The position numbers were made by a program, and so were the translations under genes. From Oscillospiraceae bacterium (GTDB lineage Bacteria; Bacillota; Clostridia; Oscillospirales; CAG-272), in assembly GCA_015063895.1 (NCBI GenBank), contig SVTG01000004.1:18923-82922 (forward strand): 64,000 nucleotides of DNA, in the 5' to 3' direction. The notes below the pieces were generated by a model. That model was not told the DNA's origin and did no database searches. It saw only the letters and a program-made list of their open reading frames with translations. Below are positions 10,573 through 26,519 of the stretch, piece after piece; the first letter of the stretch is position 1; every line of letters begins with the position of its first letter.

Positions 10573-10920
10573 TCACGCGTGATAGAGTTTGCGATAAGCG
10601 GTGGCACAAAGTCCCGTTTTTCTTTTAAAGGTCTTCATAAAATGGATCTCATCGGCAAACCCACAGGAAAATGCCACTGCGTGAACGGGCAGCGCGGTAG
10701 TTGCCAGCAGCTCGCGGGCAAGCTCTATGCGCTTTTGCACCACGTATTCGATGATCGTCACTCCGTAAGCCTTTTTAAATTGACGTAGCAGGTGCGCGTG
10801 ACTGATGCCCGCATCCTTGCATACCCCCTCAATGCTGAAGGTGGACAACGTGAAGCTACCGTCTATCATTTCCTTTATGCTCTGTATTTCCTCCGTGCGC
10901 TCGCCCGTACAGCACTCCAT
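10573..10920 (-). CDS. AraC-family HTH domain only (115 aa), probably the surviving C-terminus of a disrupted full-length regulator
   Basis: Tandem HTH_18-type helices (GISHAHLLRQFKKAYGVT ... AFSCGFADEIHFMKTFKRKTG). A cupin-like remnant reads in another frame just upstream (10958-11125). Confidence 0.6.
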   Translation of the reverse strand: MECCTGERTEEIQSIKEMIDGSFTLSTFSIEGVCKDAGISHAHLLRQFKKAYGVTIIEYVVQKRIELARELLATTALPVHAVAFSCGFADEIHFMKTFKRKTGLCATAYRKLYHA

Positions 10921-11127: not shown

Positions 11128-11170
11128 CAAAAAGCCGCAAGAGCATCGGGCATTGCCCGTCCTTGCGGCT
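11128..11170 (-). terminator. Terminator of the sugar/Etf operon
   Basis: AGCCGCAAG/CTTGCGGCT stem enclosing an inner CGGGC/GCCCG hairpin, followed by T5 on the minus strand, 8 nt after the Etf stop. Confidence 0.7.
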
Positions 11171-11177
11171 TTTATTT

Positions 11178-12563
11178 TTATAGCTTGATATTTTCAATTT
11201 TTTCCAGGATACCGTAATCGGCGTAGTCAAATATGGGGGCTTCCCTGTCGGGATTGATGGCAATTACCGTGCCTGCCCCCGACATACCCGCGATATGATG
11301 CACAGCACCCGATATGCCGACGGCGATATAGAGGACGGGCGACAGCACCTTTCCCGTCAAGCCAACCTGCTTTTCGTAAGGCAGAAAATCGTTGTCCACC
11401 ATTTTGCGAGAGGCAGCCACCTCCGCACCAAGACGGGCGGCAAGCGCTTCAGCGGCGGCAAGAGAATCCTTGGCACCGTAGCCTATACCCACCACAACGT
11501 CGGAGGTATCGCCCTTGACGGTTCTGACGGTGGCCATAGCAGGACGGATCAGACTGCGGATTTCCGCTATCACGCTACCCGAAAGAGCGGGCCGTATCAT
11601 AAAAAGCTCCTTGCCGTCGGTATGAAGGGCGGTGCAATCGGCGCAAAGCCCCACATCCAACAGGGCCGCCACCTCCGCCGCCATCCGCTTGGAGGGAAAA
11701 TCGCTTCCCCACAAAACCGCATCGGGGCGCTCCTTTTGAATACACGCCGCCACACTTGCGGTGTCCGACAGCGGAATGACCCGTATATTCTCGCTCACAC
11801 CGCGAGCAAAGTCTACGGGCGCCTCCCCTACGCAAAGCACCGAGGGGAGCAATGCCTCTTTGGCTCTTTCGGGGCTTATGCGCTCTTTTCCCTTTTGCAA
11901 GGCATCCGCCACCGTTTCCAAAAGAGAGGCGGCGTCAATGAAGCGGCATTTTCTTTTGCCCGTTTGGTTCTCCTTGGTGGAGATAACCCTTGTTGGCGAG
12001 CCCTTCAAGCCGCATTTTTCAGCATCGGCGCCGATATCGGCGCAGGAAAGAACACGGCATTCGCCCGTAACGGAGCGAAGCCTTGGGCGTCTGAGCGTAT
12101 TGATGCGCTCTACTGTCAGCACAGCGGGAAGGGACACAGATTCCTCCTGCCATCTGGTTTTACAGGCTATACTATTCTCGGTGACGCTTTGAATCTGCAT
12201 CACGTTGGTGATAAGAGAATAGCCCAGCTTGGTGGCAAGCATCGCCCCCGTTTGGGCGGTATCGCCAACTAAGGTTTGCCGACCGCAGAATACAAGGTCG
12301 GGAGAAAGAAGCCTGATAGCCCTTTCCAGGGTATAGGCAGTTGCCAGCGTATCGGCGCCCGCAAAGGCGCTATCACTTAAAAGCACAGCCTCCTTGGCGC
12401 CAAGACGGGTCAAGGAAACCAGCATATCCCGCGCGCGCAAGGGTCCCATACTCAAAAGAATGACCTCGGCGCCCGCAATACGGAGAGCCTCCTCGTACGC
12501 CGAGGCGTCAAAGGGGTTAATTTCCCCGTCGAACCCCTGGCGAACACAAACCACTATTTTCAT
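11178..12563 (-). CDS. Fused electron-transfer flavoprotein, EtfB-like N-terminal half joined to an EtfA-like C-terminal half in one 461-aa chain
   Basis: The N-terminus MKIVVCVRQ...[11 protein letters not shown]...[15 protein letters not shown]...GLKGSPT is EtfB-like. The C-terminus ...[42 protein letters not shown]...[12 protein letters not shown] is the EtfA FAD-binding domain. Confidence 0.8.
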
Positions 12564-13750
12564 GTTTTTTCTACCGTTTTTCCGCCAAGAATGACCCTTT
12601 TCAAGGTTAGCTCTCGGTCAAAAATCAAAAGGTCGGCATCCTTTCCTGCCGCAATGGAGCCCTTGCGCGCGGAAATACCCATACGGAGGGCAGGCGCCAG
12701 AGAAAGCATAACACAGGCATCGGAAAGAGATATGCCATAGCTTTGGCAAAGCACACGAAGGCATCTATCCATCGTGGCGATGCTTCCCGCAAAGGAGCTC
12801 ATATCCAACAGCTTCGCAACGCCATTGTCTACAATAACCTCGGTGCCCGCGTGCAGGCTTCCCAGCTTGCCGCTTTGCAAGGAGGATGCCGACAGGCGCA
12901 TACCGTCGGTAATGACGGATACCCCTTCTCTGCCCTTTATCTTCATAGCTAAGAGGATATCCTCCTTCGGGATATGACAGCCGTCCCCGATCAGCTCCAC
13001 GGTAACGTGATCGTTGAGATAGGTTGCCTCGTTGACACCCGCATACACCGTTTGCCCCCGTTTTCTGTGAGAGCTTGTGGCGTTATAAAAATGGGTAACG
13101 TGGGAAAATCCGTTCCGGTAGGCTGCCTCCGCTTGGGCGGCGGTGGCGTCTGTGTGCGCCACGGCAGCCACAATGCCAAGCTCCCGCATACGGTTGCCGA
13201 ATGTGGCGATACCGTCAAGCTCGGGGGCGGCGTCCCATCTGTGAATAGCGCCCCCGGCAAGCGCCAGCAGCGCCTCGGTTTCCTCCACGGTGGGAGAACG
13301 GAGAACGTCGCCCTTTTGCGCGCCGCGACTTAATTTCTCACCGCCATAGAAATAGGGTCCCTCCAGATGAACGCCGGGCGCTAAGGATGCGTAGGCGCTT
13401 CCTTCCTTGAAGGCGTGAAAGGCGGCAAGAAAGGCGGACAAATCCTCAAAGCTCGCCGCCACAGCGGTGGGATAGAGGGTGGTGGTGCCGTGGGCAAGGT
13501 GCGCCTTGATAGCGCCCTCAAAGGCATCCACCGTAGCGTCCATAAAATCGTGTCCGCCGCCCCCGTGGACGTGAATATCCACAAAACCGGGAAGGACGTA
13601 GCCGCCCTCCGCATCCATCACCTCGCACTCGCAGGCGGCGCCCGTATAGGCGAGGGTCTCTATTTTGCCGCCGCAAAGCGAGAGGATCTTGCCATCCAGA
13701 ATGCCGTCGGGGGTGACGAGGGCGCCGTTTTGTATCAAAACACGCTTCAT
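12560..13750 (-). CDS. N-acetyl-hexosamine-6-phosphate deacetylase (NagA/AgaA family amidohydrolase)
   Basis: [17 protein letters not shown] metal-binding motif; 396 aa; 4-nt overlap with the downstream Etf gene. Confidence 0.75.
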
Positions 13751-13751
13751 A

Positions 13752-14606
13752 TTACTTGTTGTAAACTCTGATTTGGGAAACAGGGCACGCCGTTGCTACG
13801 GCTGCGGCGTACACCATCGCGTCGGGGTGTCCCTGGAAGAGGGTGCAGGGTACGGAGGCAGTCTTCTCACCGTGCAGAATCTTACGGAGAGCGGCGGCGT
13901 TCCAGTCACGGGGCATACACATACGAACCTTCTTCGCCAGCAGCATTTCCTTCATACCGACGGTGATGCAGTTTTCGGGAATGGCTTCAATATTGGCGCC
14001 GCAGTTCATAAAGGCGTTGATGGTTCTGGTTTCTCTGGTGATTTTCAGGGTTCTGGTGGGACGGGCGGCGAACTCCTCGGGCGTAACAACCTCACCGGGC
14101 TCCGGAGGCTCGTTGAAGGCGTAGTGGCCGTTGATGCCAACGCCGCCAAAGACCATATCGAGCTTACCGTAGCTCTCTATAATCTCCATGACTCTGCCCT
14201 CGTTGCCGGGCTCGGGGAAAATGCGGTTTTCGGGAAGAACGTTCAGCTCCTCGTCCACCTTGGAATAGAAGGTTCTGTCCATACCGCCTCTGAAGGAAAG
14301 GGGATGGTTGTAATCAATATAGGTGCCGTCCTCGTTGAGATACTCGTCCATATTGATAAAGACGCACTTTTTCAAGGAAATACGGTACTTGTTCACAAGC
14401 TCCGCAATGCGGGCGTAGGGGCCAAGGGGGCCGTAGGGCACTACCATAACGGTGGGCTCGCCCTTTCTATTATTCTCGGCGATTACCTCCAGAACCTCGA
14501 TAGCCACCCTCCAGTACATATCGACCTCGTGCTCACATACGCTGAGCTTTACCTTGCTTCCTTCTGCAAGCTTTTCGGGGGGAATTAAATTGATGTTCAT
14601 ACTCAT
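13752..14606 (-). CDS. Hexosamine-6-phosphate deaminase/isomerase-like protein (NagB/AgaI superfamily, long form)
   Basis: GVGINGHYAFNEP active-site-region motif; 284 aa; RBS AAAGGAG. Confidence 0.7.
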   Translation of the reverse strand: MSMNINLIPPEKLAEGSKVKLSVCEHEVDMYWRVAIEVLEVIAENNRKGEPTVMVVPYGPLGPYARIAELVNKYRISLKKCVFINMDEYLNEDGTYIDYNHPLSFRGGMDRTFYSKVDEELNVLPENRIFPEPGNEGRVMEIIESYGKLDMVFGGVGINGHYAFNEPPEPGEVVTPEEFAARPTRTLKITRETRTINAFMNCGANIEAIPENCITVGMKEMLLAKKVRMCMPRDWNAAALRKILHGEKTASVPCTLFQGHPDAMVYAAAVATACPVSQIRVYNK

Positions 14607-14618
14607 TTTCTTTCTCCT

Positions 14619-16091
14619 TTACTGATTTTCCCGGTAAATTTCTGCCAGGGCTTTTTGTATTTTTTTGTATTTTGCAAACAGTTTCTGATATTTTTCGGTG
14701 TTCTCACGAATGGGCGTGACGGTTCTTTCCGTCTTGATTGCCAGCTTTATTGCCTCGTCAAAGCTTTTGAAAACACCCAGCGCCACACCTGCCAGCATAG
14801 CGGCACCCAAGGAGGAGTCGCTGCTTTGGGTAATGCGCAGCTCCATCCCCAAGGCGTCTGCCACTATCTGACTCCAAAGGGGCGATTTGGCGCCGCCGCC
14901 AATGAGCGTTGCCGTTTTGCCCGTTCGAATGCCGATGGATTCCAAATACGCCTTGGAATCCAGAAGCGACAGGGCGACACCCTCTAAAACGGCTCTGGAA
15001 AAATGCGCCTTAGTATGGGTTGCCCGCATTCCCGTAAAGCTGGCGCAAAGGGTGGGGTCGGCATAGGGCGTCAGCTCTCCCTTCAGATAGGGATGATAGA
15101 AGAGCCCTTCCGCACCAATAGGAACCTCTGCCGCCGCCTGATCCATTTCGGCGTAATCACCGCCGAAGGTATCTCGGTACCAGCGATAGCTGGAGGCTGC
15201 CGCCTTGGTTGCCGTCCCGGGGTACCAAAGACCCTTGACAACGTGAGAATAGTTTACAAGGTGTCTATCGGGTCGGGCTTCTTCGGTCATCACGCAAATT
15301 CTGCCCGCTGTTGCCAGCTTCACGGTTGTATCGCCCTTGGCAATGGCACCTGACGCCAACACCTCAAGGGCGGTATCCGTGGTACCGCATATCACGGCAG
15401 TTCCCTCGGCAAGTCCCGTCATTTTGGCCGCCTTGGGGGTGATGCTTCCCACGATGTCGGTGGGATTTTTAACAGGGGGGAGCATAGCGGGGGTAATGCC
15501 CGCCAGGGCGCAAAGCTCCCCGTCCCATTGCATTTCGTTGCAGTTGAAGAGCATACTGCCCTCTGCCTCGATGTAGTCGGTGGCGTACACGTCCGTCAAG
15601 AGATAGCGCAGGTAGTCCTTTTCGAAGAAAACGTAACGCCCGCGCCGAAACAGCTCCGACTGATTGCGCCGCAGCCATAGCAGCTGGGGCAGCGTCCATA
15701 TGGTGTCGGGCTTATGGAAGGTTTTGGAAAAGATCTCCTCCCCCTTTTCCCTTTGCAAGGCATCTGCCTCGGCACGGCTTCTGGTGTCCGTCCAATGAAT
15801 GGCACGGGAAAGGGGCCGAAAGCTCTCGTCTGCCAGCAAAAAGGTATGGGTGGCGGAGTCTAGCGCAACGCCTACGATATCCCGAGGGTTGACGCCGCTT
15901 TTTTGCAGGATCTCTCTCGTATTACAAAGGAGCGCCGCCTCCCAATCCGAGGGGGACTGCTCACAGCCGCCGTCCTCGGTATAGAGGGTGGGGTATTCTA
16001 CGGTGCTTTGTGCAACGATTTTCCCCGTCCCGTCTAGCAGCGTTGCCTTGGAGGCGCCGCCGCCAAAGTCAATGCCTAATAAATATGTCAT
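14619..16091 (-). CDS. FGGY-family sugar kinase (xylulokinase-like)
   Basis: N-terminus LLGIDFGGGASKATL and C-terminus LIGGGAKSPLWSQIVADALG. The start was moved to the ATG at 16091, 7 nt after AAGGAAGG. Confidence 0.8.
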   Translation of the reverse strand: MTYLLGIDFGGGASKATLLDGTGKIVAQSTVEYPTLYTEDGGCEQSPSDWEAALLCNTREILQKSGVNPRDIVGVALDSATHTFLLADESFRPLSRAIHWTDTRSRAEADALQREKGEEIFSKTFHKPDTIWTLPQLLWLRRNQSELFRRGRYVFFEKDYLRYLLTDVYATDYIEAEGSMLFNCNEMQWDGELCALAGITPAMLPPVKNPTDIVGSITPKAAKMTGLAEGTAVICGTTDTALEVLASGAIAKGDTTVKLATAGRICVMTEEARPDRHLVNYSHVVKGLWYPGTATKAAASSYRWYRDTFGGDYAEMDQAAAEVPIGAEGLFYHPYLKGELTPYADPTLCASFTGMRATHTKAHFSRAVLEGVALSLLDSKAYLESIGIRTGKTATLIGGGAKSPLWSQIVADALGMELRITQSSDSSLGAAMLAGVALGVFKSFDEAIKLAIKTERTVTPIRENTEKYQKLFAKYKKIQKALAEIYRENQ

Positions 16092-16156
16092 ATACAAGCC
16101 TTCCTTTTTTCGCTCTGCCGCAAGGGGATAATCACCCTTATCGGGGCAAGAGGAAA

Positions 16157-16945
16157 TTATTTAATCCAGTCGTGCTCGGGGTCGTTAGAGCGGTTGAAGC
16201 CCTGGTAATCGCCCGCCATCAGCCACAAAAAATAGGTTTTGTAGCCAGGGGTAGCCACGGTGGTATGGAAGCCACGGGGAAACTCCACCAGCTCATCGTT
16301 CTTCACACGGTACGCCTCCTCAATTTCGCCGTCACCCGTATACAGGCATTGCACGGCGAAGCCCTGCTTGGGCTCAAAGAGGAAATAATAAATTTCCTCG
16401 GCGACGCACTCGGTGGGCATATTGTCCTCATCGTGCTTATGGGGAGGGAAGCCCGCCCAGTTGCCCTCGGCAACGTATGCCTCGCCAACGGTCAGTATTT
16501 TGGCGTTGGTGGTGCCGTCAATGAGGAAGGTGGTTTCTCTTTGGAAGGGGACTCTGCCCAGAAGCTTCACGGGCACTCTCTCCGCGCGCAAAAGCTGGGG
16601 CTCACCCTTCTCTGCCACGGGGGTGGCGCAAACGGCAATTTTCAGGTTGTCCCGTGCCGTAATGTCGAGGCTCATATCGCGGGGCATAAAAAAGCTTTCA
16701 GCCCGCTTGTTCTCAAAAACGGAGCTGCGATTGCCGACATTCTCCCATTTTTCATTGTCAAACGTCACGTCACAATGCCCCTCGAGCAGAATAAAGGCAG
16801 TTTCCTTATCCTCGGTGCTGTAACGGAGGCTTTCTCCCGCACCAAGCGCAATAATACCGAACTCCAGCCGCTTAAGGGAGCATTCACCGATCTTACACAT
16901 GGGGGTATAGCCCTTTTGGGGCAGATAAGTCTTTTTATAATTCAT
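16157..16945 (-). CDS. KduI/IolB-family sugar isomerase (5-deoxy-glucuronate isomerase-like)
   Basis: 262-aa cupin with PPHKHDE...EEIYYF...GFHTTVATPGYKTYFLWLMAGD, typical of IolB. Confidence 0.65.
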   Translation of the reverse strand: MNYKKTYLPQKGYTPMCKIGECSLKRLEFGIIALGAGESLRYSTEDKETAFILLEGHCDVTFDNEKWENVGNRSSVFENKRAESFFMPRDMSLDITARDNLKIAVCATPVAEKGEPQLLRAERVPVKLLGRVPFQRETTFLIDGTTNAKILTVGEAYVAEGNWAGFPPHKHDEDNMPTECVAEEIYYFLFEPKQGFAVQCLYTGDGEIEEAYRVKNDELVEFPRGFHTTVATPGYKTYFLWLMAGDYQGFNRSNDPEHDWIK

Positions 16946-17846
16946 AACCGTTCTCCTTCATATATGCTTTGACAGCTTCAAAGCGCGGCACGCTTTCGCG
17001 CGCCCCCACACCCATACACTTCATAGCGGACACGGCACTGGCAAAGTGACAGCACTTTTCGTATCCGTAGCCCTTGACCACGCCTGCGGCAAAGGCACCG
17101 TGAAAGACGTCACCCGAGCCGTTGGAATCCTTCACCTCGGCAGGATATATGGGATAATAGGAAAGGCTTTCGCCGTCATAAATCAAGCCGCCTCTTTTTC
17201 CCTGGGTAACAACCACGATTTCGGGAGAATAGAGGTCATAGAGCTTCCTTGCCGCCTCCTCGGCGGTGGTGGCGCCTGTGTGCCCGATGGCAAACTCCTC
17301 GGAGGGAATCATAATGTCGGTCTGCGCCAGGAGCGCCGCGACGCCCTCGTAAAGACCGCCGCAATCGTATAGCACCTTGGTGCCTGCTTCTTTCGCAATA
17401 ATGGCAGCCTCTACCGCCGCCTCTAACTCGTTGCCGTCCACCATCAGAAGCGCCGCTTCCCTGACAGCCTGCCTTTGCGCCTCGGAAAGAGAGAGGGGAG
17501 GCAGGTTGCCCTTGTCGAAAACGCAGGTGCGCGCGGTGGAATCGGCAGACAGCCAAAGCACCGAGGTAAAGGAGCGGTAGCCGCTCTTGATTTCCACAAG
17601 GTCGGTGGCAACGCCGTATGCTTCAAAATCCTTCTTTAAGAAGGCGCCGCCGTTATCATCGGACAAAACGCCGATATACGCCGCTGATTCTCCGAGCTTT
17701 TGCGCGGCAACCAGCCCCGTTGCGGTGGGGCCGCCGCCTGCGGGCTTACAGGAGGTGGCGCGCATTTTGGTATCTTCCTTGGGATAGGTGGGGACGTTAT
17801 AAAGCGTATCAAACACGCAAGCGCCTATTCCGACTATCTTTGCCAT
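16935..17846 (-). CDS. PfkB-family sugar(-phosphate) kinase
   Basis: Ribokinase-fold motifs GGGPTATG and DSNGSGDVFHGAF. The ATG at 17846 lies 1 nt after the aldolase stop. Confidence 0.8.
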   Translation of the reverse strand: MAKIVGIGACVFDTLYNVPTYPKEDTKMRATSCKPAGGGPTATGLVAAQKLGESAAYIGVLSDDNGGAFLKKDFEAYGVATDLVEIKSGYRSFTSVLWLSADSTARTCVFDKGNLPPLSLSEAQRQAVREAALLMVDGNELEAAVEAAIIAKEAGTKVLYDCGGLYEGVAALLAQTDIMIPSEEFAIGHTGATTAEEAARKLYDLYSPEIVVVTQGKRGGLIYDGESLSYYPIYPAEVKDSNGSGDVFHGAFAAGVVKGYGYEKCCHFASAVSAMKCMGVGARESVPRFEAVKAYMKENGYEL

Positions 17847-17847
17847 A

Positions 17848-18690
17848 TCAGTCAGCCCTTCCGTCAGCGCCCACCAGCTTGATTTTAGAAATGCAGAAGC
17901 TCTTGACAGCCTCAATGGGCTTTTTCATAAAGGTATCGATAGCAACGGGTCTTTGGGGATCGTTTACGACCTCCTTGCAGGTATCAAGGAAGGAATAGCA
18001 AAGGTCGGTGGCGAAATTCATTTTGCGAATGCCCTCCGCAACAGCCTTTTTAATTTCCTCGTCGGGAACACCCGAGCCGCCGTGCAGAACCAATGCCGCA
18101 CCGCCCGTTGCCGCGCGAATCGCCTTGATGCGCTCAATGTCCAGCTTGGGCGGCTTTTTATATCTGCCGTGCGCCGTGCCAACGGCAACCGCCAGACAGC
18201 AGACGCCCGTTTCCTCCACGAAGCGCTTGGCGTCCTCGGGGGTGGTAAACTCGTCCATCGTATCGTCCTTGGTGGTGCCTACGTGCCCAAGCTCGCCCTC
18301 CACCTGCACGTCAAGATAGCGGCAGGTATCCGCTACTCTTTTGGTTAAGGCAATATTCTCCTCAAAGGGGAGGGTGGAGCCGTCCAGCATAATACCCGTG
18401 GCGCCGTAGCAAAGAGAACGGGTGGTTTCCAGCTCCGAGGGGCCGTGGTCCAGGTGGAAGCAGACGGGAACGGTGGCGCGGGCTGCCGCCGCCAGAATAA
18501 CGGGGGAAAGGAAATAACCCGTTTCCTCCTTCATCAAGCGGGGGTACACCTGCATAATGACGGGGGCGCGCGCCTCCTCGGCGGCGTGCAGCACGCCAAT
18601 CACGCTTTCCATATTATAGACGTTGAAGGCGGGGACGCAAAAGCCGCCCTTTTCCGCCATTCCGATAATCGTTTGAAGATTGACCAGCAT
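17848..18690 (-). CDS. Class II ketose-bisphosphate aldolase (GatY/KbaY/IolJ family)
   Basis: VPAFNVYNMES...PVIMQV...HLDHG...LVLHGGSG motifs. Confidence 0.8.
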   Translation of the reverse strand: MLVNLQTIIGMAEKGGFCVPAFNVYNMESVIGVLHAAEEARAPVIMQVYPRLMKEETGYFLSPVILAAAARATVPVCFHLDHGPSELETTRSLCYGATGIMLDGSTLPFEENIALTKRVADTCRYLDVQVEGELGHVGTTKDDTMDEFTTPEDAKRFVEETGVCCLAVAVGTAHGRYKKPPKLDIERIKAIRAATGGAALVLHGGSGVPDEEIKKAVAEGIRKMNFATDLCYSFLDTCKEVVNDPQRPVAIDTFMKKPIEAVKSFCISKIKLVGADGRAD

Positions 18691-18702
18691 CGCTTTTCTC
18701 CT

Positions 18703-19788
18703 TTATTGCAGTATGAGGTCTTCTAAGGAATAGATGGCAAAGCCCTCCTCCGCTGCTGCCTTCAGGGCGGCGTATTCGGACACGGAGGCGGTAACGATGG
18801 CGGTAGCGCCAATGCTCTTGGCATTGAAAATTCTTCTCTTGGCAACCTCTTCGATAACCTTCGGCATATACTGCGCCATCAGAATGTTGCCCGCAAAGAT
18901 AGTTCCCTTGCGGTTCAGATGCATTTCGGAAAGCTCGGCAAAGGCGCCGATGACCTCTCTTGCCTCCTCGGTTTCCTCTAAATCGCGTGCCAGCTGATAG
19001 GGGTCCTGGTACACCACGCGCGTATCGCTCTTTTGCGCCTTCAGCTTGTTTTCCTTCAGCAAAGAGGCAAGGAAGGCGGTATAGGTGACAACCGTTGCCT
19101 TCACCTCGATGCCGTACTCCTTGTACAGCTGCTTGATAGTCTTGGCGTCCTCGGGGTCATAAACAACCACGGTTTTATAGCCATTCAGCGCCTTGGCGCA
19201 GGCAGCCATCATCTCGGCGGTTTCATCCGCCTTGCCGATAAGGAACTCCAACTGCGCTCCCGAGGGAGCCTCGTTTTCCAAAAGCGTAAAGGCAACCCCC
19301 GCCTTATCCAAAACCGCCACAGCCTTGCACGCCTCGGCGCACATCATATATCTGGCATCTACACCCAGGAAAAGCAGGGTGTCGGTCTTAGCGGAATGGG
19401 CGTTGATCGCGGCGGTAAGGCTCTCGCAGAGAGCATTCTTGCCGTAGGCGTTACCAAAGGTGAGGCAATTCTCTACCATAGTATTGATGTAGGGAGGGAG
19501 CTTATCCTCCAAGGCTGCCTGCAATCTTGCCTCCTTGGCGAACATAACGGGGTCCCAGCCCGTGACACACTCGTGAACGCAGGCGCCGCAGGTGGCACAT
19601 TCGTACACGTTGTCCATTACCTCAGAAAGGTCGATAGCCTCACGGTTGACCAAGGACAGACCCAGGGCTCTGGCTCTGGGAGTGCTTCTCTCCTGTCCCG
19701 TGGCGTTGCCGATGGGGCAGATGTGATGACACATCCAGCAGAAGCGACAGGAATCTATATGCTGTTTGCTTTTTTCAGACATGATCAT
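18703..19788 (-). CDS. (Fe-S)-binding subunit, GlcF/LutA/GlpC-like
   Basis: Two ferredoxin-type clusters, CRFCWMCHHICP and CATCGACVHEC, plus a C-terminal CCG-like domain. The start was taken at ATG 19788, 9 nt after AAGGAG. Confidence 0.7.
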   Translation of the reverse strand: MIMSEKSKQHIDSCRFCWMCHHICPIGNATGQERSTPRARALGLSLVNREAIDLSEVMDNVYECATCGACVHECVTGWDPVMFAKEARLQAALEDKLPPYINTMVENCLTFGNAYGKNALCESLTAAINAHSAKTDTLLFLGVDARYMMCAEACKAVAVLDKAGVAFTLLENEAPSGAQLEFLIGKADETAEMMAACAKALNGYKTVVVYDPEDAKTIKQLYKEYGIEVKATVVTYTAFLASLLKENKLKAQKSDTRVVYQDPYQLARDLEETEEAREVIGAFAELSEMHLNRKGTIFAGNILMAQYMPKVIEEVAKRRIFNAKSIGATAIVTASVSEYAALKAAAEEGFAIYSLEDLILQ

Positions 19789-19801
19789 AGCTGTTCTCTC
19801 C

Positions 19802-21238
19802 TTATATTCCAAGCTTAAAGGGGTTCATAATACCGTTGGGGTCCAAGGTCTTTTTCAGGCCCTCGAACACCTGCATAGCGGGGCCGTACTGCTCCTTCAT
19901 CAGTCTGCCAAGCTTAATGCCCACGCCATGGTGGTCGTTAACAACGCCGCCGTGCTCTAATGCCGTTCTGACGCCGCAGGTCCAAATCTGCTGATGGAGC
20001 CGCAGAGCCTCCACAGGGTCGGTGGGAACGTCCTTGCCCTCCACGATAAATCTGTCGTAAATCATCGAGCCCCATTCATACCAATGAGAGAAGTGGGCGA
20101 TAAACTTAGCCTGGGGGAAGTTGCTTTCAATCGCATTCTTCATTGCCCAGTAGATTTCCTCAATCTTGCCGTAGGGCGCAATGGTATCCATCGTACCGAA
20201 CATCTGGGGAATGTCCATCATATGACCGGGATAGAAGAAGGTGATTTTTTCCTTCCACCATTTCTCACCGTACTCGCTGCCAAGGTCCTCGGCACCGTAT
20301 TTCTTGAAGGTGTCAAGCAGGATCTTCTCCTCCACGTCCACTAACTCCTTGACGCCCTCGTAGGCAATGTTCATAAAGGCGCCCTTGCGCTCCACGCCTA
20401 CGATTTTCTTAATGAGAGAGGAGGTTTCCGCCTCATCGTACAGACGCATAACCGAGGGCTTGAACTTTTGCAAAAGCTCGCGGCTTGCTAAGAACGCACC
20501 GTGCATATCCTGGAACAGGAAGCCTCTGAAGCGGCGCACCTCGGGCTGGTCGAAGATACGAATCTGCGCCTTGGTGATAACGCCCAGCGTTCCCTCGGAG
20601 CCGATGAAAATCTGGTTCAGATCGGGCCCTGCCGCGTGCTTGGGCGCGGAGGCGGTGTTGATGATGTCGCCGTTGGGAAGAACGACCTCCATCTGCAGCA
20701 CCATATCGTCAATCTTGCCGTACTTGGTGGACACAACGCCGATGCCTCTGTGGGCAAGGAAGCCGCCAACCGTGGAGCAGGTGAGGGAGGAGGGATAGTG
20801 CATGGTTGCCTTGCCTACCTCGTTTGCCGCCCACTCGATGTGCTTATAGATGGCACCCGTGCCGCACTCTATGTACATAGCGTCGGTATTGACCTCGTAA
20901 ATCTTGTTCATTCTCTTGGTATCAAGCAGAATGCCGCCTGCCACGGGAATGGCGCCGCCCTGGGTACCGCCGCCGGCACCCCAGGTGGTAACGGGGATTT
21001 TATAGTAGTTGGCGATTTTCAGAACCTTGGACACCTCGGTGGCGTTTTCGGGACAAACCACGATATCAGCCTCGGGCATACGCTCGCCTCTGTCAGCCCA
21101 CATTCTGGACAGCCAGAAATAATCCACGCTATGGGAGACCTTGTCGATGGCTCTGGTGGAGCAATTTTCCTTTCCTACCGCATCCTCAAGCTCGGTGAGA
21201 ATCATGGAAAACAAAAATTTGTTCATTTGGTACTGCAT
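19802..21238 (-). CDS. FAD-linked oxidase/dehydrogenase (GlcD / D-lactate dehydrogenase / alkyl-DHAP-synthase-like)
   Basis: FAD_binding_4 pattern PDIVVCPENATEVSKVLKIANYYKIPVTTWGAGGGTQGG and a C-terminal HHGVGIKLG. The start was moved to ATG 21238, 6 nt after AGGAGG. Confidence 0.8.
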   Translation of the reverse strand: MQYQMNKFLFSMILTELEDAVGKENCSTRAIDKVSHSVDYFWLSRMWADRGERMPEADIVVCPENATEVSKVLKIANYYKIPVTTWGAGGGTQGGAIPVAGGILLDTKRMNKIYEVNTDAMYIECGTGAIYKHIEWAANEVGKATMHYPSSLTCSTVGGFLAHRGIGVVSTKYGKIDDMVLQMEVVLPNGDIINTASAPKHAAGPDLNQIFIGSEGTLGVITKAQIRIFDQPEVRRFRGFLFQDMHGAFLASRELLQKFKPSVMRLYDEAETSSLIKKIVGVERKGAFMNIAYEGVKELVDVEEKILLDTFKKYGAEDLGSEYGEKWWKEKITFFYPGHMMDIPQMFGTMDTIAPYGKIEEIYWAMKNAIESNFPQAKFIAHFSHWYEWGSMIYDRFIVEGKDVPTDPVEALRLHQQIWTCGVRTALEHGGVVNDHHGVGIKLGRLMKEQYGPAMQVFEGLKKTLDPNGIMNPFKLGI

Positions 21239-21417
21239 ATTCATCCTCCTGTATGAATTTTTTATATCCATAAACAATTATAGCACTTCCTTTTTGGGTT
21301 GTAAATGTAAACAAAGAAAGTATTTGTAAAAAACGGTACTTATTTTTGCGCTTTTGGATTGAAAAATCCATTTTTTTGTGGTATGATGGGATAAAACGAT
21401 AGAAAAGGAGTCCGACG

Positions 21418-22245
21418 ATGAAGCTGATTTCCTTTGAAAAGCTTTACACCACCGATTTTTTGATCAGCGAATCCCTGGTCAAGCCGCAATGCTGGCAAGG
21501 GCGCGGAAACGTATACAACGCCCTGGGAAAGCCCAAAATTTCGCACACGCTTCTCTGGTTCAAAAACTGCAGCGCCGTCATCACGGATTCGGTGGGAAAC
21601 GTCCTTCACGCGGCACAAAATCAGCTTATCTACACCGCCAAGGGCATTGAATATAAAATCCTCTTTCAGGACACGGGCAAAAGCAAGGAGGACACCGTTG
21701 TCATCCATTTTCAGATGACGGACAAGGACGGGGAGGACATTGCCCCTATTCTTACCCCCTTCGTTTGCATGAAGTCCTTGGATGCCGCCACCGCCGCCTC
21801 CATTGATATGCTTGCCAAGGAGTTCACCAAGAACATCGTCTGCGTCCCCGAAATCAATTCGGTGATATATAAAATCCTGGCGGATATTTGTAAAAACCAA
21901 AAAAGAAGGACGACAAAAAAGCGATACGCACGTATTATAAACGGCATTGAGCTTTTAGAGCAGAACAGCGAATTAGACATTGAGGAGATTGCCAGGCGCT
22001 GCGGCATCAGCGGCTGCTATTTCAGACGACTGTTCAAGGAATACAGCGGCGAGAGTCCCATACAGTTCCGTCAACGTCACCGCATCGAGCGCGCCAAGAG
22101 CCTTTTGCTTTCCGACGAGCCCTACTCCATCGGCGAAATCGCCAGCGAGCTGAATTTTCTGGACATATACCATTTCAGCAAAACCTTCAAAAAGCTTTGC
22201 GGTATGTCCCCCAGCGAATTTTTAAGTCGGTACGGCGCGGAATAG
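21418..22245 (+). CDS. AraC-family transcriptional regulator, divergent from the sugar operon
   Basis: N-terminal ligand domain plus a C-terminal HTH (IARRCGISGCYFRRLFKEY...IASELNFLDIYHFSKTFKKLCGMSP). Confidence 0.85.
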   Translation: MKLISFEKLYTTDFLISESLVKPQCWQGRGNVYNALGKPKISHTLLWFKNCSAVITDSVGNVLHAAQNQLIYTAKGIEYKILFQDTGKSKEDTVVIHFQMTDKDGEDIAPILTPFVCMKSLDAATAASIDMLAKEFTKNIVCVPEINSVIYKILADICKNQKRRTTKKRYARIINGIELLEQNSELDIEEIARRCGISGCYFRRLFKEYSGESPIQFRQRHRIERAKSLLLSDEPYSIGEIASELNFLDIYHFSKTFKKLCGMSPSEFLSRYGAE

Positions 22246-22281
22246 CCCGTTATAATAAAAAAGAACGCAAAGCCTCCTTTC

Positions 22282-22467
22282 TTATGTGCGACAAACAATG
22301 TAGTCTACAGTCACATTGAAATAATCTGCTAATTTGCAAAGTGCATCTATATCCGGCTCGCGCACTTCCCTTTCATAGCGCGAATATACCAGCGGAGAAC
22401 AACAAATAACTTCTGCCACTTCCTTTTGTGTTGCACCCTTTTCTGCTCGCAATTCTTTAAGTCTCAT
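22282..22467 (-). CDS. XRE-family HTH regulator (61 aa)
   Basis: MRLKELRAEKGATQKEVAEVICCSPLVYSRYEREVREPDIDALCKLADYFNVTVDYI is a classic Cro/C1 HTH. Confidence 0.85.
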   Translation of the reverse strand: MRLKELRAEKGATQKEVAEVICCSPLVYSRYEREVREPDIDALCKLADYFNVTVDYIVCRT

Positions 22468-22702
22468 CCTCTTCCTCCAAGCCTAGGATATCGCATAGCA
22501 TTGAGTATGCTACTGATTTTTTTCCTTGTTTCTTTGAGGAATGATATCCTTGCCAAGTCTTTCTGCCAACCGAGCATTCACAATACCAAACAGGATTCCC
22601 ATTTTCATCATAAGCTTCTGAGAAGTCATAACTCGGCTGATCAATATAGCCTTTTTGATAAAATTCCTGAAGCTGATTTATTACTCGGTCAATGTCGGGT
22701 TC
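22457..22702 (-). pseudogene. Open frame with a dsRBD-like motif and no canonical start codon; its stop overlaps the XRE start
   Basis: Stop-to-stop frame EPDIDRVINQLQEFYQKGYIDQPSYDFSEAYDENGNPVWYCECSVGRKTWQGYHSSKKQGKKSVAYSMLCDILGLEEEDET. It has no ATG/GTG/TTG before residue 64 and no RBS. It is absent from the ORF track. Confidence 0.3.
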
Positions 22703-22834
22703 TCAGTGGTTGTCAATTACTTTCGACTATCCTTTTCGGACATGCGAGTCACGAAGCCACAAGCCGCTTTTTCTTTGTTTATTGCGATGTAAATTTTGAG
22801 GGCTGACGATTGATTTTCGTCAGCCCTTCGTATG

Positions 22835-24144: not shown

Positions 24145-24222
24145 TTTTAATACCCGTCGGGCTTATCCGATATTCTCCTTTATTAGAATTTTGGGTTACT
24201 CGGTAACATCCTCTGTCTTGGG

Positions 24223-24639: not shown

Positions 24640-24647
24640 AACCAGCT

Positions 24648-24905: not shown

Positions 24906-24927
24906 AGCATTCACCTTCCTTGCTATT

Positions 24928-26514: not shown

Positions 26515-26519
26515 AATGA

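Follow-up and report, generated by a model that had tools for sequence, protein, structure and literature searches.

The window, by which we mean the whole stretch of DNA that was analyzed, is 64,000 nt long. The bacterium that carries the operon described here is uncultured. Nine co-directional open reading frames are present on the minus strand between 21238 and 11178, and searches with Pfam and NCBIfam profiles bore out the families stated for them in the original prediction. The starts of the genes were refined using the ribosome-binding sites (RBS) and the N-termini of homologues. The features are listed below in the order of transcription of the operon, preceded by the divergent regulator.

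21418..22245, plus strand: divergent AraC-family regulator (HTH_18/HTH_AraC)
21277..21305, minus strand: sigma-70-type promoter-like site (TTTACA-17-TATAAT, TG upstream, 11/12 matches)
19802..21238, minus strand: FAD enzyme, YgcU/alkyl-DHAP-synthase-like, VAO superfamily (478 aa; PF01565 and PF02913)
18703..19788, minus strand: Fe-S protein (two [4Fe-4S] motifs, N-terminal; no CCG cysteines in the C-terminal domain)
17848..18690, minus strand: class II ketose-(bis)phosphate aldolase, IolJ/GatY/Fba-like (PF01116, 284 bits)
16935..17846, minus strand: PfkB-family kinase, ribokinase/IolC-like (PF00294; start refined to the ATG at 17846)
16157..16945, minus strand: IolB-type (KduI/IolB cupin) aldose-ketose isomerase (PF04962, 233 bits)
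14619..16091, minus strand: FGGY kinase, XylB-like (FGGY_N and FGGY_C)
13752..14606, minus strand: divergent NagB-superfamily deaminase/isomerase, NagB-like (TIGR00502, 94 vs. 236.9)
12560..13750, minus strand: NagA-type amidohydrolase, N-acetylhexosamine deacetylase-like (TIGR00221, 229.3 vs. 225.65)
11178..12563, minus strand: fused EtfB-EtfA electron transfer flavoprotein (ETF, residues 4-153; ETF_alpha, 354-428)
11129..11173, minus strand: intrinsic terminator of the operon (hairpin followed by UUUUU)

The nine-gene operon is real. The distances at the junctions are +13 nt (FAD enzyme/Fe-S protein), +12 (Fe-S protein/aldolase), +1 (aldolase/PfkB), -11 (PfkB/IolB), +65 (IolB/FGGY), +12 (FGGY/NagB-like), +1 (NagB-like/NagA-like), and -4 (NagA-like/Etf). 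Therefore, the tight packing originally described applies to seven of the eight junctions and fails at IolB-FGGY, where the gap of about 65 nt (59 nt with a TTG start) is the site of gene insertions in other loci. The promoter-like site was the top match in a scan of 11.5 kb and lies directly 5' of the first gene. The ATG of that gene (21238) follows it at a distance of 39 nt and is preceded by an AGGAGG RBS. The claim of a single terminator is supported by the hairpin at the distal end (-26.6 kcal/mol, z = -4.9, equaled by none of 200 shuffles), which a simple terminator scan overlooked because of its branched loop. The predicted divergent AraC gene is also present; its orthologues (57-77% identity) are placed likewise in 10 or more loci of the variant that contains the NagA-like and NagB-like genes, and most other modules carry an RpiR regulator in its place. 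As had been noted, no transporter gene was found in the nine-gene unit, nor was one found in the rest of the window.

The first gene had been described as coding for a GlcD-like FAD oxidase, a claim that did not hold. The protein scored 194.9 bits on the GlcD HMM, one third of the cut-off of 567.9, and its top match in PDB was alkyl-DHAP synthase (ADPS, 2uuu, 2e-42). In the alignment it keeps the equivalents of ADPS Arg419, Tyr578, and His616/617, the glutamate of the GEHG motif of 2-hydroxyacid dehydrogenases is replaced, and the ADPS/YgcU pattern stands in the place of the HxGDGNxH of GlcD and LDHD. A GlcD/LctD-like active site was ruled out by the lost glutamate together with the ADPS-type residues. 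No named relative is closer than E. coli YgcU, to which the protein aligns over its full length (470 residues, 30% identity; E = 8e-56). Since the active site is of the ADPS/YgcU type, the proposal that glycolate or D-lactate is oxidized as a side product has no direct support.

The Fe-S protein matched only Fer4_8 and Fer4_17 in Pfam and resembles TfrB, GlpC, and LdhH weakly, with scores far under the cut-offs; a profile search of Pfam and NCBIfam gave no match to a CCG domain. Among the motifs originally quoted, HVHGGGG of the NagA-like protein, GINGHYAFNEP of the NagB-like protein, and the first cluster motif of the Fe-S protein, CRFCWMCHHICP, are as stated, but the second cluster motif, CATCGACVHECV, is CxxCxxCxxxCV and does not end in CP. 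EtfB and EtfA are fused into one polypeptide (461 aa), both halves of which match bifurcating Etfs best (5ol2, 7koe, the LctB of 7qh2, and 6fah, at about 1e-30), while non-bifurcating EtfB reaches only about 1e-11. By its sequence, the Etf is predicted to be of the electron-bifurcating type, as in LctBCD. That genes of sugar and hexosamine metabolism are linked to those of the FAD enzyme, Fe-S protein, and Etf, as proposed, was supported.

The remaining enzymes of sugar metabolism could be placed with different degrees of precision. The aldolase scored 239.9 on TIGR00167 (cut-off 215.6), met no specific equivalog cut-off, and scored equally on tagatose-bisphosphate aldolase and FBA models. The PfkB-family kinase remained under the cut-offs for ribokinase (111.8 bits) and IolC (IolC_N, 99.7 bits; cut-off 300). 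Its assignment to the hexose-phosphate kinase subfamily (LacC/PfkB/FruK) was ruled out by a score of 50 bits on TIGR03168, where the cut-off is 216. The isomerase scored 220.6 on the IolB equivalog TIGR04378 (cut-off 205), and module homologues from five other loci reached 220-258 bits. All isomerases tested thus exceed the IolB cut-off, and the IolB/IolC/IolJ-like branch, offered originally as an alternative, fits better than the main reading. The FGGY kinase scored 369.2 on TIGR01312 (380.25), and its top PDB matches were xylulokinase structures.

The NagA-like protein keeps the HxH motif and matches B. subtilis NagA (2vhl) at 1.9e-40. Its substrate may be phosphorylated because the phosphate-binding arginine of NagA is retained. 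The NagB-like protein, which had no Pfam match, keeps the equivalents of Asp72, His143, and Glu148; Phe stands in for Arg172 and Asn for Lys208, and the 41-44 loop has been shortened. The usual phosphate-binding residues are thus absent.

Comparison of 168 fetched loci showed that the operon is built of two units. All seven core genes (FAD enzyme, Fe-S protein, fused EtfBA, IolB-type isomerase, PfkB, class II aldolase, and FGGY) were found in 69 loci and form a fixed module, which occurs in rumen and gut Clostridia, Bacilli, and Thermoguttaceae, in the last two without NagA/B. In the 27 flavoenzyme-centered loci whose 10-kb flanks were complete, no Fe-S protein, aldolase, PfkB, or IolB gene was missing, FGGY and Etf were present in 26, and NagA/B in only two. 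The Fe-S gene adjoined the flavoenzyme gene wherever the module was seen. In all 67 comparisons, the flavoenzyme ranked first among the core proteins in conservation, with 83-95% identity across phyla against 51-68% for its neighbors. The module usually carries an SftI-like isomerase at its head (49 of the 69 complete loci) and lacks NagA/B. Among NCBIfam models, this accessory isomerase matched only that of the sulfoquinovose isomerase SftI, at 75.6 against a cut-off of 700; further accessory genes code for DUF4867 (SftX) and a GalM-type mutarotase. In the variant found in the window the SftI-like entry isomerase is absent and all seven core genes are kept.

The pair of NagA-like and NagB-like genes is a separate unit, often found alone beside GH123. 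The NagB-like gene had a NagA-like partner wherever it was seen, and of 32 fully flanked NagB-centered loci 15 had no core gene; GH123 was present in eight of these 15, and PfkB or aldolase in none. The GH123 enzymes are cytoplasmic and belong to the beta-N-acetylgalactosaminidase family, and one operon composed of GH123, NagB-like, and NagA-like genes with a divergent AraC gene adjoins GH35 and GH36 genes. These results contradict the assignment of five genes to an Aga/Nag route, since PfkB, aldolase, and FGGY co-occur with the flavoenzyme and not with NagA/B, and they reverse the view of the redox trio as an addition to hexosamine catabolism. The nine-gene arrangement is far from chance. The identical order recurred in seven fetched loci and all nine genes, in several orders, in 21. 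The place of the pair with respect to the module varies, with four or more junctions used; in seven loci it is the middle, the interval from FGGY to Etf. Genes for a PIG-L deacetylase and a NagB-II-type SIS deaminase, which are not homologous to the pair, adjoin the module in another lineage, and in two loci (L001 and L004) AGE, MurQ-like, and second NagB-like genes are inserted into it. These observations speak for a functional coupling of the two units. No characterized pathway equal to the cluster was found, in keeping with the original reading, and no paper on the seven-gene module was found in the literature. The module is very widespread in gut bacteria, yet uncharacterized.

We lean, by a small measure, toward a composite operon in which the NagA/B unit feeds the redox/sugar module as follows. 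An N-acetyl-hexosamine-type sugar, probably galacto-configured, would be deacetylated by the NagA-like enzyme and then deaminated and isomerized by the NagB-like enzyme to a 2-ketose or 2-keto sugar acid. This product would be of the same kind as that which the SftI-like isomerase yields from a non-amino sugar in most other genomes. The IolB-type isomerase, PfkB, and aldolase would act like IolB/IolC/IolJ: an aldehydo-sugar with an anionic tail would be converted to a 2-ketose, phosphorylated adjacent to the keto group, and cleaved to DHAP and a C3 fragment. The FGGY kinase and the flavoenzyme/Fe-S/Etf complex would carry out one step poorly suited to NAD(P) enzymes. It would transfer two electrons to or from a phosphorylated keto intermediate whose head group resembles DHAP, and the Etf would exchange electrons with NAD(H) and ferredoxin. 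In the version that we prefer, which is tentative, a hexuronate- or hexosaminuronate-type substrate would give DHAP and tartronate semialdehyde or hydroxypyruvate, and the C3 acid would be phosphorylated and reduced to phosphoglycerate. The order of the steps and the direction of electron flow are inferred, as is the substrate, which is taken from genomic context.

That context hints at an anionic or uronate substrate. About 11 loci have an AEC/Mem_trans permease within the operon, three types of (Me)GlcA-associated CAZyme (CE15, GH115, and an in-operon protein with a GH67 N-terminal domain) are located within or close to the module across three lineages, and in the E. coli ygc locus YgcU, Etf, and an FGGY kinase occur with a KduD-like reductase. 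However, these CAZymes were seen in only three lineages, in two of them outside the operon, and the CAZyme neighbors of the module are mixed (GH30, GH123, GH36, GH13, GH31, GH39, and GH101-like). The SftI-like isomerase, DUF4867, and the GalM-type mutarotase are otherwise tied to neutral or 6-sulfo sugars and not to uronates. Against the proposed working, the window also carries a canonical KdgK/Eda pair and a canonical NagB. We know of no case in which a 2-oxo acid phosphate is the substrate of a bifurcating reductase, and the need for ADPS-type residues in such a reduction is not obvious.

The genes around the pair (GH123/GH35/GH36) also speak against the proposed working, since they indicate ordinary GalNAc, and no flavoenzyme is required for tagatose or tagatose 6-phosphate, the product from that sugar. 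As an alternative, two unrelated pathways might be co-transcribed, a GalNAc route and an independent Etf-linked one, with the hexosamine carbon bypassing the flavoenzyme and passing from the NagA-like and NagB-like enzymes to a tagatose 6-phosphate kinase and a tagatose-bisphosphate aldolase borrowed from the module. We consider this unlikely, but it is the strongest competitor. The pair evidently works without the module, the aldolase does not discriminate between the two types of model, and a shared galacto-configured lower pathway would account for the repeated recruitment of the pair. However, the PfkB kinase lies outside the required subfamily, and the window variant lacks the SftI-like isomerase yet keeps all core genes, at junctions of 1-13 nt. 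The mid-module position of the pair and the non-homologous deacetylase and deaminase genes also argue for a functional connection.

It is rather improbable that the module degrades a 6-deoxy, 6-sulfo, or 6-O-sulfated hexose, or the hexosamine that corresponds to it where NagA/B is present. The isomerase, a kinase, and the aldolase would produce DHAP and lactaldehyde, sulfolactaldehyde, or glyceraldehyde sulfate; IolB would turn the C3 aldehyde into a ketone, the second kinase would yield X-CH2-CO-CH2-OP, an acyl-DHAP analogue, and the ADPS-like flavoenzyme would swap X for OH to give a second DHAP. This scheme has a role for every gene and accounts for the ADPS-type catalytic residues. It also agrees with the SftI-only match of the accessory isomerase, the altered anion site of the NagB-like protein, the occurrence of the module in herbivore guts, and the fact that sulfoglycolysis clusters of the same bacterial families employ the DUF4867 (SftX), GalM-type mutarotase, PfkB, and class II aldolase families. 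However, the SftI score is low, and no sulfoquinovosidase (GH31 YihQ type), sulfatase, or sulfite-exporter/sulfite-reductase gene was seen beside any module. Moreover, substitution of a sulfonate or sulfate requires no Etf, and for the hydroxylation of acetol phosphate we estimated, from tabulated free energies, an E0' of about 0 mV, a potential near which a bifurcating Etf in a fermenter is not easily an electron acceptor. The IolB family is known for carboxylate-tailed substrates.

Less probable still is the original model, in which the trio is a 2-hydroxyacid dehydrogenase of the LctBCD/GlcDEF type that oxidizes glycolate or D-lactate from N-glycolyl or muramyl-type amino sugars handled by the Nag/Aga genes. 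The composition of the trio does resemble Ldh-EtfAB, the flavoenzyme matches LctD (7e-29) and LDHD (7.5e-35) in PDB, genes for a MurQ/GKRP-like etherase homologue and an AGE epimerase lie inside the cluster in L001 and L004, and a GH25 muramidase is found near one synteny group. Against it, the metal-binding glutamate is gone, most loci with the trio have no amino-sugar gene, and IolB, FGGY, PfkB, and aldolase are left without a role though inseparable from the trio. Finally, a variant myo-inositol or cyclitol pathway (e.g., from galactinol- or pinitol-type plant cyclitols), with authentic IolB/IolC/IolJ and with FGGY and flavoenzyme/Etf replacing IolG/IolE/IolD to form 5-deoxyglucuronate, is consistent with the isomerase scores, the iolB-iolC-iolJ-like adjacency, and GH36 genes near some loci, but is highly improbable given that iolD, iolE, iolG, and iolA occur in none of about 180 loci, the malonate-semialdehyde enzyme is absent, PfkB falls far below the IolC cut-off, and the mutarotase, SftI-like isomerase, and NagA/B accessories point to open-chain aldoses.

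Several known systems resemble parts of the composite operon. Firmicute sulfoglycolysis clusters (with a sulfo-EMP2 kinase and class II aldolase) share with the module the SftI-like isomerase, DUF4867, mutarotase, and class II aldolase families, as well as bacterial families and habitat, but the module isomerase is only a distant SftI homologue. The module lacks sulfoquinovosidase, transaldolase/transketolase, and sulfolactaldehyde reductase, and the known clusters lack flavoenzyme/Fe-S/Etf, IolB, and FGGY genes. The GlcNAc/GalNAc route (NagA-NagB; AgaA-AgaI/AgaS-KbaY) has in common with the operon the amidohydrolase-fold deacetylase, which is just above the NagA cut-off, and the catalytic Asp/His/Glu of NagB; the NagB-like protein is far under both the NagB and AgaI cut-offs. 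In addition, AgaK, PTS, and AgaS are absent from the operon, the conserved partner of the pair is GH123, and the kinase and aldolase belong to the flavoenzyme module. ADPS/AGPS (2uuu, 4bby) belongs to ether-lipid metabolism, is not a redox enzyme, and has neither an Etf nor an Fe-S partner; the operon protein lacks its N-terminal 130-200 residues and has Asp at the first His of the HHH loop.

Ldh-EtfAB (LctBCD) of Acetobacterium woodii (7qh2) also combines a VAO-superfamily FAD dehydrogenase with a bifurcating-type Etf, and the EtfB half in the operon retains GDTAQ as a motif and aligns to LctB at 6e-30. However, LctD is a GlcD-type metal-dependent 2-hydroxyacid dehydrogenase, the operon Etf is a single shortened polypeptide, the [4Fe-4S] clusters are carried not by EtfA but by a distinct protein of 360 aa, and the genes around are those of sugar kinases and an aldolase instead of a lactate permease and racemase. 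The E. coli K-12 ygc locus (ygcNOP, ygcQR, ygcS, ygcU, ygcW, yqcE, ygcE), for which no functional paper was found in the literature, likewise includes EtfAB (YgcQR), a small Fe-S protein (YgcO), and an FGGY kinase (YgcE), and YgcU shares the motifs R..LYD, SH.Y..G...Y, and HHG[IV]G with the flavoenzyme. It differs in its separate Etf subunits, a FixC-like YgcN that suggests a quinone link, a KduD-like SDR in place of the IolB-type isomerase, two MFS transporters, a GlpP-like antiterminator, and the lack of PfkB kinase, aldolase, and NagA/B. In IolB-IolC-IolJ, which make up the lower part of myo-inositol catabolism in Bacillus subtilis, as in the operon, a PfkB kinase and an aldolase of class II accompany an isomerase at the level of the IolB equivalog. 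The operon has no iolA/D/E/G, its kinase is under the IolC cut-off, and the three enzymes are always tied to flavoenzyme/Fe-S/Etf and the FGGY kinase. The chemistry implied for both is the conversion of an aldehydo-acid to a 2-ketose, then to a phosphate ester, and finally to DHAP and a C3 oxo-acid.

The nine open reading frames located between nucleotides 21238 and 11178 of the window are all on the minus strand, and their products were assigned to families using Pfam and NCBIfam. These were the families named in the original prediction. For the Etf, the Fe-S protein and the NagB-type protein, the family assignment held and some details were added: the Etf subunits are fused, the Fe-S protein has no CCG domain and the NagB-like protein has no Pfam match.

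Genes of the operon (all start positions refined)
19802-21238, minus strand: VAO-superfamily FAD enzyme (FADox, the flavoenzyme)
18703-19788, minus strand: 2x[4Fe-4S] protein
17848-18690, minus strand: class II aldolase
16935-17846, minus strand: PfkB kinase
16157-16945, minus strand: IolB/KduI cupin
14619-16091, minus strand: FGGY kinase
13752-14606, minus strand: NagB-like protein
12560-13750, minus strand: NagA-like amidohydrolase
11178-12563, minus strand: Etf (fused EtfB-EtfA)

The junctions, from the flavoenzyme to the Etf gene, measure +13, +12, +1, -11, +65, +12, +1 and -4 nt, so the tight packing described before is correct except for the gap of about 65 nt between the IolB and FGGY genes. 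The top sigma-70-like site in a scan of 11.5 kb (11/12 matches, with a TG extension) lies 39 nt 5' of the first ATG. A hairpin (-26.6 kcal/mol, z = -4.9) followed by a U-run is located 3' of the last gene, and an AraC gene is divergent from the operon. The nine genes form one transcription unit. Neither the operon nor the rest of the window includes transporter genes. The host is an uncultured Clostridia bacterium, and a metagenome-assembled genome (MAG) from roe-deer caecum has the same nine genes with 96-100% protein identity.

Other features were observed around the operon and elsewhere in the window. Just past the AraC gene (22001-28000) the G+C content falls to 0.43-0.49, and the genes at 22835-24144 (-) and 25075-27725 (-) encode an RsgI-like anti-sigma factor and a sigma-70 region-2 protein, with two phage-type integrases in tandem after them. 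This stretch may be an integrated element flanking the operon. An ORF of 115 amino acids just 3' of the operon terminator, at 10573-10920 (-), has an AraC-type HTH domain alone and resembles a regulator gene that has been truncated. At 39122-41481 (-), a D-2-hydroxyacid dehydrogenase of the SerA type, with an ACT domain, is encoded next to a class V aminotransferase; the two probably form a serine-biosynthesis pair. The 860-aa ORF at 6174-8756 (-), which matches no family and lies antisense to the gene for pyruvate phosphate dikinase (6219-8843, +), can almost certainly be dismissed as a shadow ORF.

The distribution of the genes was analyzed in two scans. The genome collection was searched with the NagB-like protein, which gave 207 relatives, and 80 loci were retained. 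Metagenomes were searched with the flavoenzyme; 80 of the 259 matching stretches were retained, and contigs obtained by exact look-up were added. In the NagB-like scan, the NagB-like and NagA-like genes were almost always adjacent, and the other seven genes were present in some loci only. When the 32 NagB-centered loci with full 10-kb flanks were considered, the seven-gene module was found in 17, and no module gene was found in the other 15. These 15 pair-only loci had no PfkB kinase or aldolase genes (0/15 each), and eight had a GH123 gene. The typical stand-alone pair unit consists of an AraC gene in the opposite orientation, one or two GH123 genes and the NagB-like and NagA-like genes, with GH35 and GH36 genes nearby. 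The usual module starts with an oppositely oriented RpiR regulator gene and, in some cases, genes for an SftI-like isomerase and a GH30 enzyme, followed by those for the flavoenzyme, Fe-S protein, aldolase, PfkB and IolB. After IolB, a DUF4867 or GalM-type mutarotase gene and an AEC permease gene may precede the FGGY and EtfBA genes. In the fully flanked flavoenzyme loci (n = 27), the genes for the Fe-S protein, aldolase, PfkB and IolB were each present in 27/27, those for FGGY and Etf in 26/27, that for the SftI-like isomerase in 22/27, and the NagA/B genes in only 2/27. All seven core genes were found in 69 of the 168 loci, in at least four block orders. Across these 168 loci the pair was located between FGGY and Etf, after Etf, before the flavoenzyme gene or after PfkB, and the module occurred without the pair in one Bacilli MAG and in Thermoguttaceae (Planctomycetota). 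These results showed that the seven-gene module is inherited as a block, and that the hexosamine pair is separable and was recruited to the module repeatedly. The architecture in the window is a minority form, in which the pair and AraC replace the SftI-like isomerase and RpiR.

The recurrence of the joining, independent of position, argues for a functional link between both units rather than an accident. Two other arrangements point in the same direction. In a human-gut lineage (loci L150, 1095-8082, and L162), the region immediately 5' of RpiR and the core includes an oppositely oriented AraC gene and genes for a ROK protein, a PIG-L deacetylase, a NagB-II-type double-SIS protein (deaminase), a Mem_trans permease and a CE15 glucuronoyl-esterase-like protein. 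The PIG-L and NagB-II-like genes are non-homologous counterparts of the NagA/NagB add-on. CE15-type enzymes are associated with (Me)GlcA esters. In two loci from water-deer MAGs (L001, 3737-8495, and L004), four extra genes in the IolB-FGGY gap encode a PMI-like cupin, a 559-aa MurQ/GKRP-like SIS protein, an AGE-family N-acylglucosamine 2-epimerase homologue and a second NagB-like protein.

Other variants of the module were also found. Two Thermoguttaceae loci (L081 and L088; 10703-13105 and 16456-18858) encode a protein of 800 amino acids that has DUF4838 and, at its N-terminus, a GH67 domain; its gene and that of an MscS-type channel lie between PfkB and IolB, within the module. No FGGY or Etf gene was present in the retrieved part of these contigs. 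Four Faecousia MAGs (L031, L037, L039 and L040) have a divergent version of the cluster in the order NagB-like, NagA-like, aldolase, PfkB, flavoenzyme, Fe-S protein, EtfA-like, IolB, FGGY. In this version the flavoenzyme is 59-61% and the Fe-S protein 36% identical to its window counterpart, and a separate 349-aa EtfA-like gene is present; the Etf is apparently unfused. Occasional genes straight after Etf (L094, 18874-19995; L173, 18705-19610; L109, L115, L118 and L120) belong to the Ldh_2 (YiaK/ComC-like) dehydrogenase, DHDPS/NanA-family lyase, GalE-like epimerase, Cof-type HAD phosphatase and ARMT1-type damage-control phosphatase families.

The flavoenzyme has the FAD_binding_4 and FAD-oxidase_C domain pair (PF01565, 116.9 bits; PF02913, 71.6 bits), which is common to the whole VAO superfamily. 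Its scores against the GlcD models were below both cut-offs (194.9 versus 567.9 for TIGR00387; 113 versus 897 for PRK11230). The best match in the PDB was alkyl-DHAP synthase (ADPS, 2e-42), followed by LDHD (7.5e-35), LctD (7e-29) and glycolate oxidase (5e-27). In enzymes of the GlcD/LctD/LDHD type, the Glu-His of the G-E-H-G-[IV]-G motif help bind the metal and the substrate, as seen in LDHD and D2HGDH structures. The flavoenzyme has N-D-H-H-G-V-G aligned with G-E-H-G-I-G of LDHD, so this 2-hydroxyacid dehydrogenase motif is not kept, and AHFSHWYEWGSMIY aligned with GHVGDGN-FH of LDHD, where the HxGDGNxH pattern is not kept either. The catalytic positions of ADPS were located through the mutant entries 4bc7 (R419H) and 4bca (Y578F). 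Arg419, Tyr578 and His616/His617 are kept, the segments SVMRLYD, SMIYDRF and DHHGVG being aligned with ASIRLMD, ACIYFYF and HHHGVG. ADPS proteins have 580-660 amino acids and an N-terminal domain that contributes to the lipid-binding site. The flavoenzyme (478 amino acids) lacks this domain, and the alignment begins at ADPS residue 135 (Dictyostelium) or 202 (guinea pig). ADPS catalyzes an acyl/alkyl exchange on DHAP with no net redox; the obligate Etf and Fe-S partners argue that the reaction of the flavoenzyme is probably redox.

The best named relative of the flavoenzyme is E. coli YgcU (183 bits, 30% identity over residues 11-472, which is the full length, with motifs in common). The median identity to the window flavoenzyme was 89-90% (83-95% in the metagenome set), the corresponding values for the Fe-S protein, aldolase, PfkB, FGGY and Etf were 51-68%, and the flavoenzyme was the most conserved core protein in 67/67 loci. 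It is under exceptional constraint, with about 90% identity across phyla versus 50-65% for neighbor genes. The best 120 database clusters listed, which include Bacilli and Thermoguttaceae, were all at least 82% identical to it, and the nearest representatives in a library clustered at 50% identity were 53%, 46% and 40% identical. The flavoenzyme group is one tight, isolated clade. Its 90%-identity cluster has 2,944 members; the IolB entries of 263-264 amino acids in this cluster are ordinary IolB sequences, a database clustering artefact and not a fusion protein.

The fused Etf is a 461-aa protein with a shortened EtfA N-terminal domain and a GDTAQ-type motif in its EtfB part. Both halves match bifurcating Etfs (1e-26 to 1e-31), i.e., 5ol2 (Bcd-Etf), 7koe (FixAB-type), 7qh2_B (LctBC), 6fah (CarDE) and 4kpu, and the matches to non-bifurcating EtfB were weaker (5e-12 and 2e-11). 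Bifurcating (group 2) Etfs have two FAD per heterodimer and couple NADH and ferredoxin. The Fe-S protein includes the CxxCxxCxxxC[PV] cluster motifs CRFCWMCHHICP and CATCGACVHECV (Fer4_8, 31.5 bits), and its C-terminal domain is degenerate, with no PF02754 match and no CCG motif in the C-terminal 230 residues. It scored below the cut-offs of the GlcF (20.6 versus 333) and GlpC (33.9 versus 278) models, and a PDB sequence search gave nothing useful for its identity. Judged from these comparisons, an enzyme of the ADPS/YgcU type is paired with an Etf of the bifurcating type. At the sequence level, the matches to ADPS, YgcU and the Etfs, and also those to NagB, left no ambiguity.

The IolB protein of the window scored above the equivalog cut-off (220.6 versus 205), as did five other module isomerases (220-258), which fall into two sequence subtypes only about 40% identical to each other. 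PfkB was below the cut-offs of the IolC model TIGR04382 (99.7 versus 300) and of TIGR03168, the LacC/PfkB/FruK hexose-phosphate kinase subfamily (50.3 versus 216.4); it resembles ribokinase and IolC and lies outside the latter subfamily. The aldolase was above the TIGR00167 cut-off (239.9 versus 215.6) and below those of the FBA, GatY and KbaY equivalogs; it is a generic class II ketose-bisphosphate aldolase. FGGY was just under the XylB cut-off (TIGR01312, 369.2 versus 380.25). The accessory isomerase of other loci had the sulfoquinovose isomerase SftI model as its sole NCBIfam match, far under the cut-off, and a PDB sequence search produced nothing useful. DUF4867 is the SftX cupin of sulfoglycolysis clusters, and the largest DUF4867 sequence cluster was reported beside fucose-isomerase-family and FGGY genes (PMC11968277), an arrangement that is probably the present module. 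DUF4867 was rejected as an assigned isomerase, SftX being a cupin of sulfoglycolysis without an explained role.

The NagA-like protein is marginally above the TIGR00221 cut-off (229.3 versus 225.65) and has the HxH metal motif in DIHVHGGGG. In E. coli NagA, Arg227 of the R-E/D-P-G motif binds the 6-phosphate. The Arg is present in the NagA-like protein (K-R-G-Q), and the motif is altered and includes a 4-residue insertion. The NagB-like protein had no match to PF01182 even at E = 0.01, and was below the cut-offs of TIGR00502 (94.1 versus 236.9) and the AgaI model (39.8 versus 271). It keeps Asp72, His143 and Glu148, with NMDEY and GINGHYAFNEP aligned with NMDEY and GNDGHIAFNEP of the E. coli enzyme. 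Arg172, Lys208 and the 41-44 TGGT loop of E. coli NagB bind phosphate; in the NagB-like protein Arg172 is Phe, Lys208 is Asn, and the loop is PYG--P, with a two-residue deletion. Together with GH123, the pair may represent a hexosamine route with a deaminase that is non-canonical in 6-phosphate binding. A canonical NagB with an N-terminal extension of about 70 amino acids is encoded at 62483-63424 (+) (TIGR00502, 274 bits versus 236.9), which indicates that the NagB-like protein of the operon is a specialized paralogue. This gene and those for a KdgK-like PfkB kinase and an Eda aldolase (58359-59381, -, and 59378-59947, -) provide the genome with the standard GlcN-6-P and KDG routes besides the operon.

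From a sugar of the N-acetyl-hexosamine type, the pair could produce the 2-ketose (or keto-acid) otherwise supplied by the SftI-like isomerase, and the GH123, GH35 and GH36 context suggests that this sugar is probably galacto-configured. IolB, PfkB and the aldolase would act as IolB/IolC/IolJ to produce DHAP and a C3 fragment. The redox step would be the task of FGGY and the flavoenzyme complex, and its substrate would be a keto compound that is phosphorylated and has a DHAP-like head. A glycerol-phosphate/DHAP-like ligand is suggested by the similarity to ADPS and by the GlpP-like regulator in E. coli. Since hexose-level ketoses need no such redox step, the substrate would be more oxidized or more reduced than a hexose, or substituted. 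We see a real, although minor, chance that the flavoenzyme, the 2x[4Fe-4S] protein and the bifurcating-type Etf catalyze a new class of reaction in carbohydrate metabolism. It may consist of flavin-N5-type chemistry on a phosphorylated ketose or an analogue of a triose, at the carbon beside the keto group, in the form of reductive or hydrolytic loss of an O-, N- or S-linked substituent or of water-dependent hydroxylation, coupled to NADH/ferredoxin.

A hexuronate, with a hexosaminuronate as substrate of the pair, is the version ranked first, although we regard it as a rather doubtful candidate. The uronate would be converted to a keturonate and its 1-phosphate, which would be cleaved to DHAP and tartronate semialdehyde/hydroxypyruvate; phosphorylation of the C3 acid and its reduction would yield phosphoglycerate, in a reaction that couples the oxidation of NADH to that of ferredoxin being reduced. 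Several points favor this version: carboxylate-tailed aldehydes are what the IolB family is known for, about 11 operons include a gene for an anion permease of the AEC type, (Me)GlcA-related proteins (CE15, GH115 and the GH67-N protein) are encoded near or inside the module in three lineages, YgcW of the E. coli locus is KduD-like, and the anion site of the NagB-like protein is altered. However, the accessory genes (SftI-like, DUF4867 and mutarotase) and the GalNAc-type surroundings of the pair point to other substrates, and the CAZyme support is thin, with heterogeneous neighbors. A neighborhood census of transporters and CAZymes yielded occasional in-operon AEC permease and GH30 genes, one CUT1 ABC system and scattered GH/CE families; none of the glycosidases was consistent enough across loci to identify the substrate. 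The in-operon GH30 is glucosylceramidase/BT3312-like and uninformative, and the proteins of about 700 amino acids encoded beside several modules are mutually unrelated. Other substrates were considered and rejected. Plain tagatose/galactose or another hexose-level ketose leaves no role for the flavoenzyme; hexitols clash with accessories such as the mutarotase, the isomerase and NagB; for pentose 5-phosphates analogous to 5-deoxyglucuronate, the product (glycolaldehyde phosphate) leads nowhere; for 2,3-diketogulonate/ascorbate the decarboxylase and epimerases are missing; and for 4-O-methylglucuronate demethylation no route could be written that leaves an aldolase substrate.

It is unlikely that the operon simply places two pathways under one promoter, perhaps with PfkB and the aldolase in common for tagatose phosphate, because the PfkB subfamily and the location of the pair in the middle of the module fit poorly, and it is precisely the variant with the added pair that has lost the entry isomerase. 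A 6-deoxy, 6-sulfo or 6-sulfate sugar, where the ADPS-like enzyme turns an X-CH2-CO-CH2-OP compound into DHAP, would give every gene a role and account for the catalytic residues. We consider it improbable nonetheless, as no sulfoquinovosidase, sulfatase or sulfite genes were seen next to the modules and the Etf is superfluous for substitution chemistry. Furthermore, based on free energies tabulated for analogous couples, we estimate about 0 mV for the hydroxylation of acetol phosphate, a value that agrees poorly with a bifurcating Etf in a fermenter. The original prediction described an amino-sugar operon with an LctBCD/GlcDEF-type redox trio that, as one hypothesis, oxidizes glycolate or D-lactate. 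This interpretation was supported in part only, and the glycolate/D-lactate oxidation now seems very improbable in view of the active-site signature of the flavoenzyme, which keeps neither GEHG nor HxGDGNxH, and of the independence of the module from the amino-sugar genes. A cyclitol route is hardly credible, as iolA, iolD, iolE and iolG were found in none of the inspected loci.

If the new chemistry suggested for the flavoenzyme complex is true, it would define a new anaerobic route, very abundant, for a sugar common in the gut. This sugar would be a uronate or a hexose with a deoxy, sulfo or ether substitution, together with the corresponding N-acetylamino sugar. The orphan ygc locus of E. 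coli would gain a function as well. The module is very common and is found in Clostridia from rumen, hindgut and human gut, Bacilli and Planctomycetes. Identification of the substrate would close a gap in what is known of carbon flow during gut fermentation in herbivores and humans, would probably reveal a new electron-bifurcating (or confurcating) reaction, would annotate thousands of metagenome "FAD-binding oxidoreductase" or "alkyldihydroxyacetonephosphate synthase" calls, and would hint at the role of the long-standing orphan ygc genes. To our knowledge, the YgcU/ADPS-like flavoprotein clade has no known role in sugar metabolism, and an ADPS/YgcU-like flavoenzyme, about 90% conserved across phyla and tied to a bifurcating-type Etf in a sugar operon, would be surprising to specialists.

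Neither a description of the cluster nor a functional study of the ygc genes was found in the full-text literature searched, which lacked most subscription-journal papers, and the module is not mentioned in the rumen sulfoquinovose paper. The operon resembles Ldh-EtfAB in its architecture, the flavoenzyme resembles ADPS in its active site, the lower pathway resembles IolBCJ, and the likeness to NagA/NagB is confined to the add-on pair; by these comparisons, the operon as a whole belongs to none of them. The closest named system, itself uncharacterized, is the E. coli ygc locus, where the product of ygcU resembles the flavoenzyme. The annotated MG1655 region includes ygcU (FAD dehydrogenase), ygcQR (Etf), ygcNO (FixCX-like), ygcE (FGGY kinase), ygcW (KduD-like), ygcP (GlpP-like) and two transporters. 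The likeness to the present operon lies in the co-location of the Etf (ygcQR), ygcO and FGGY kinase (ygcE) genes with ygcU.
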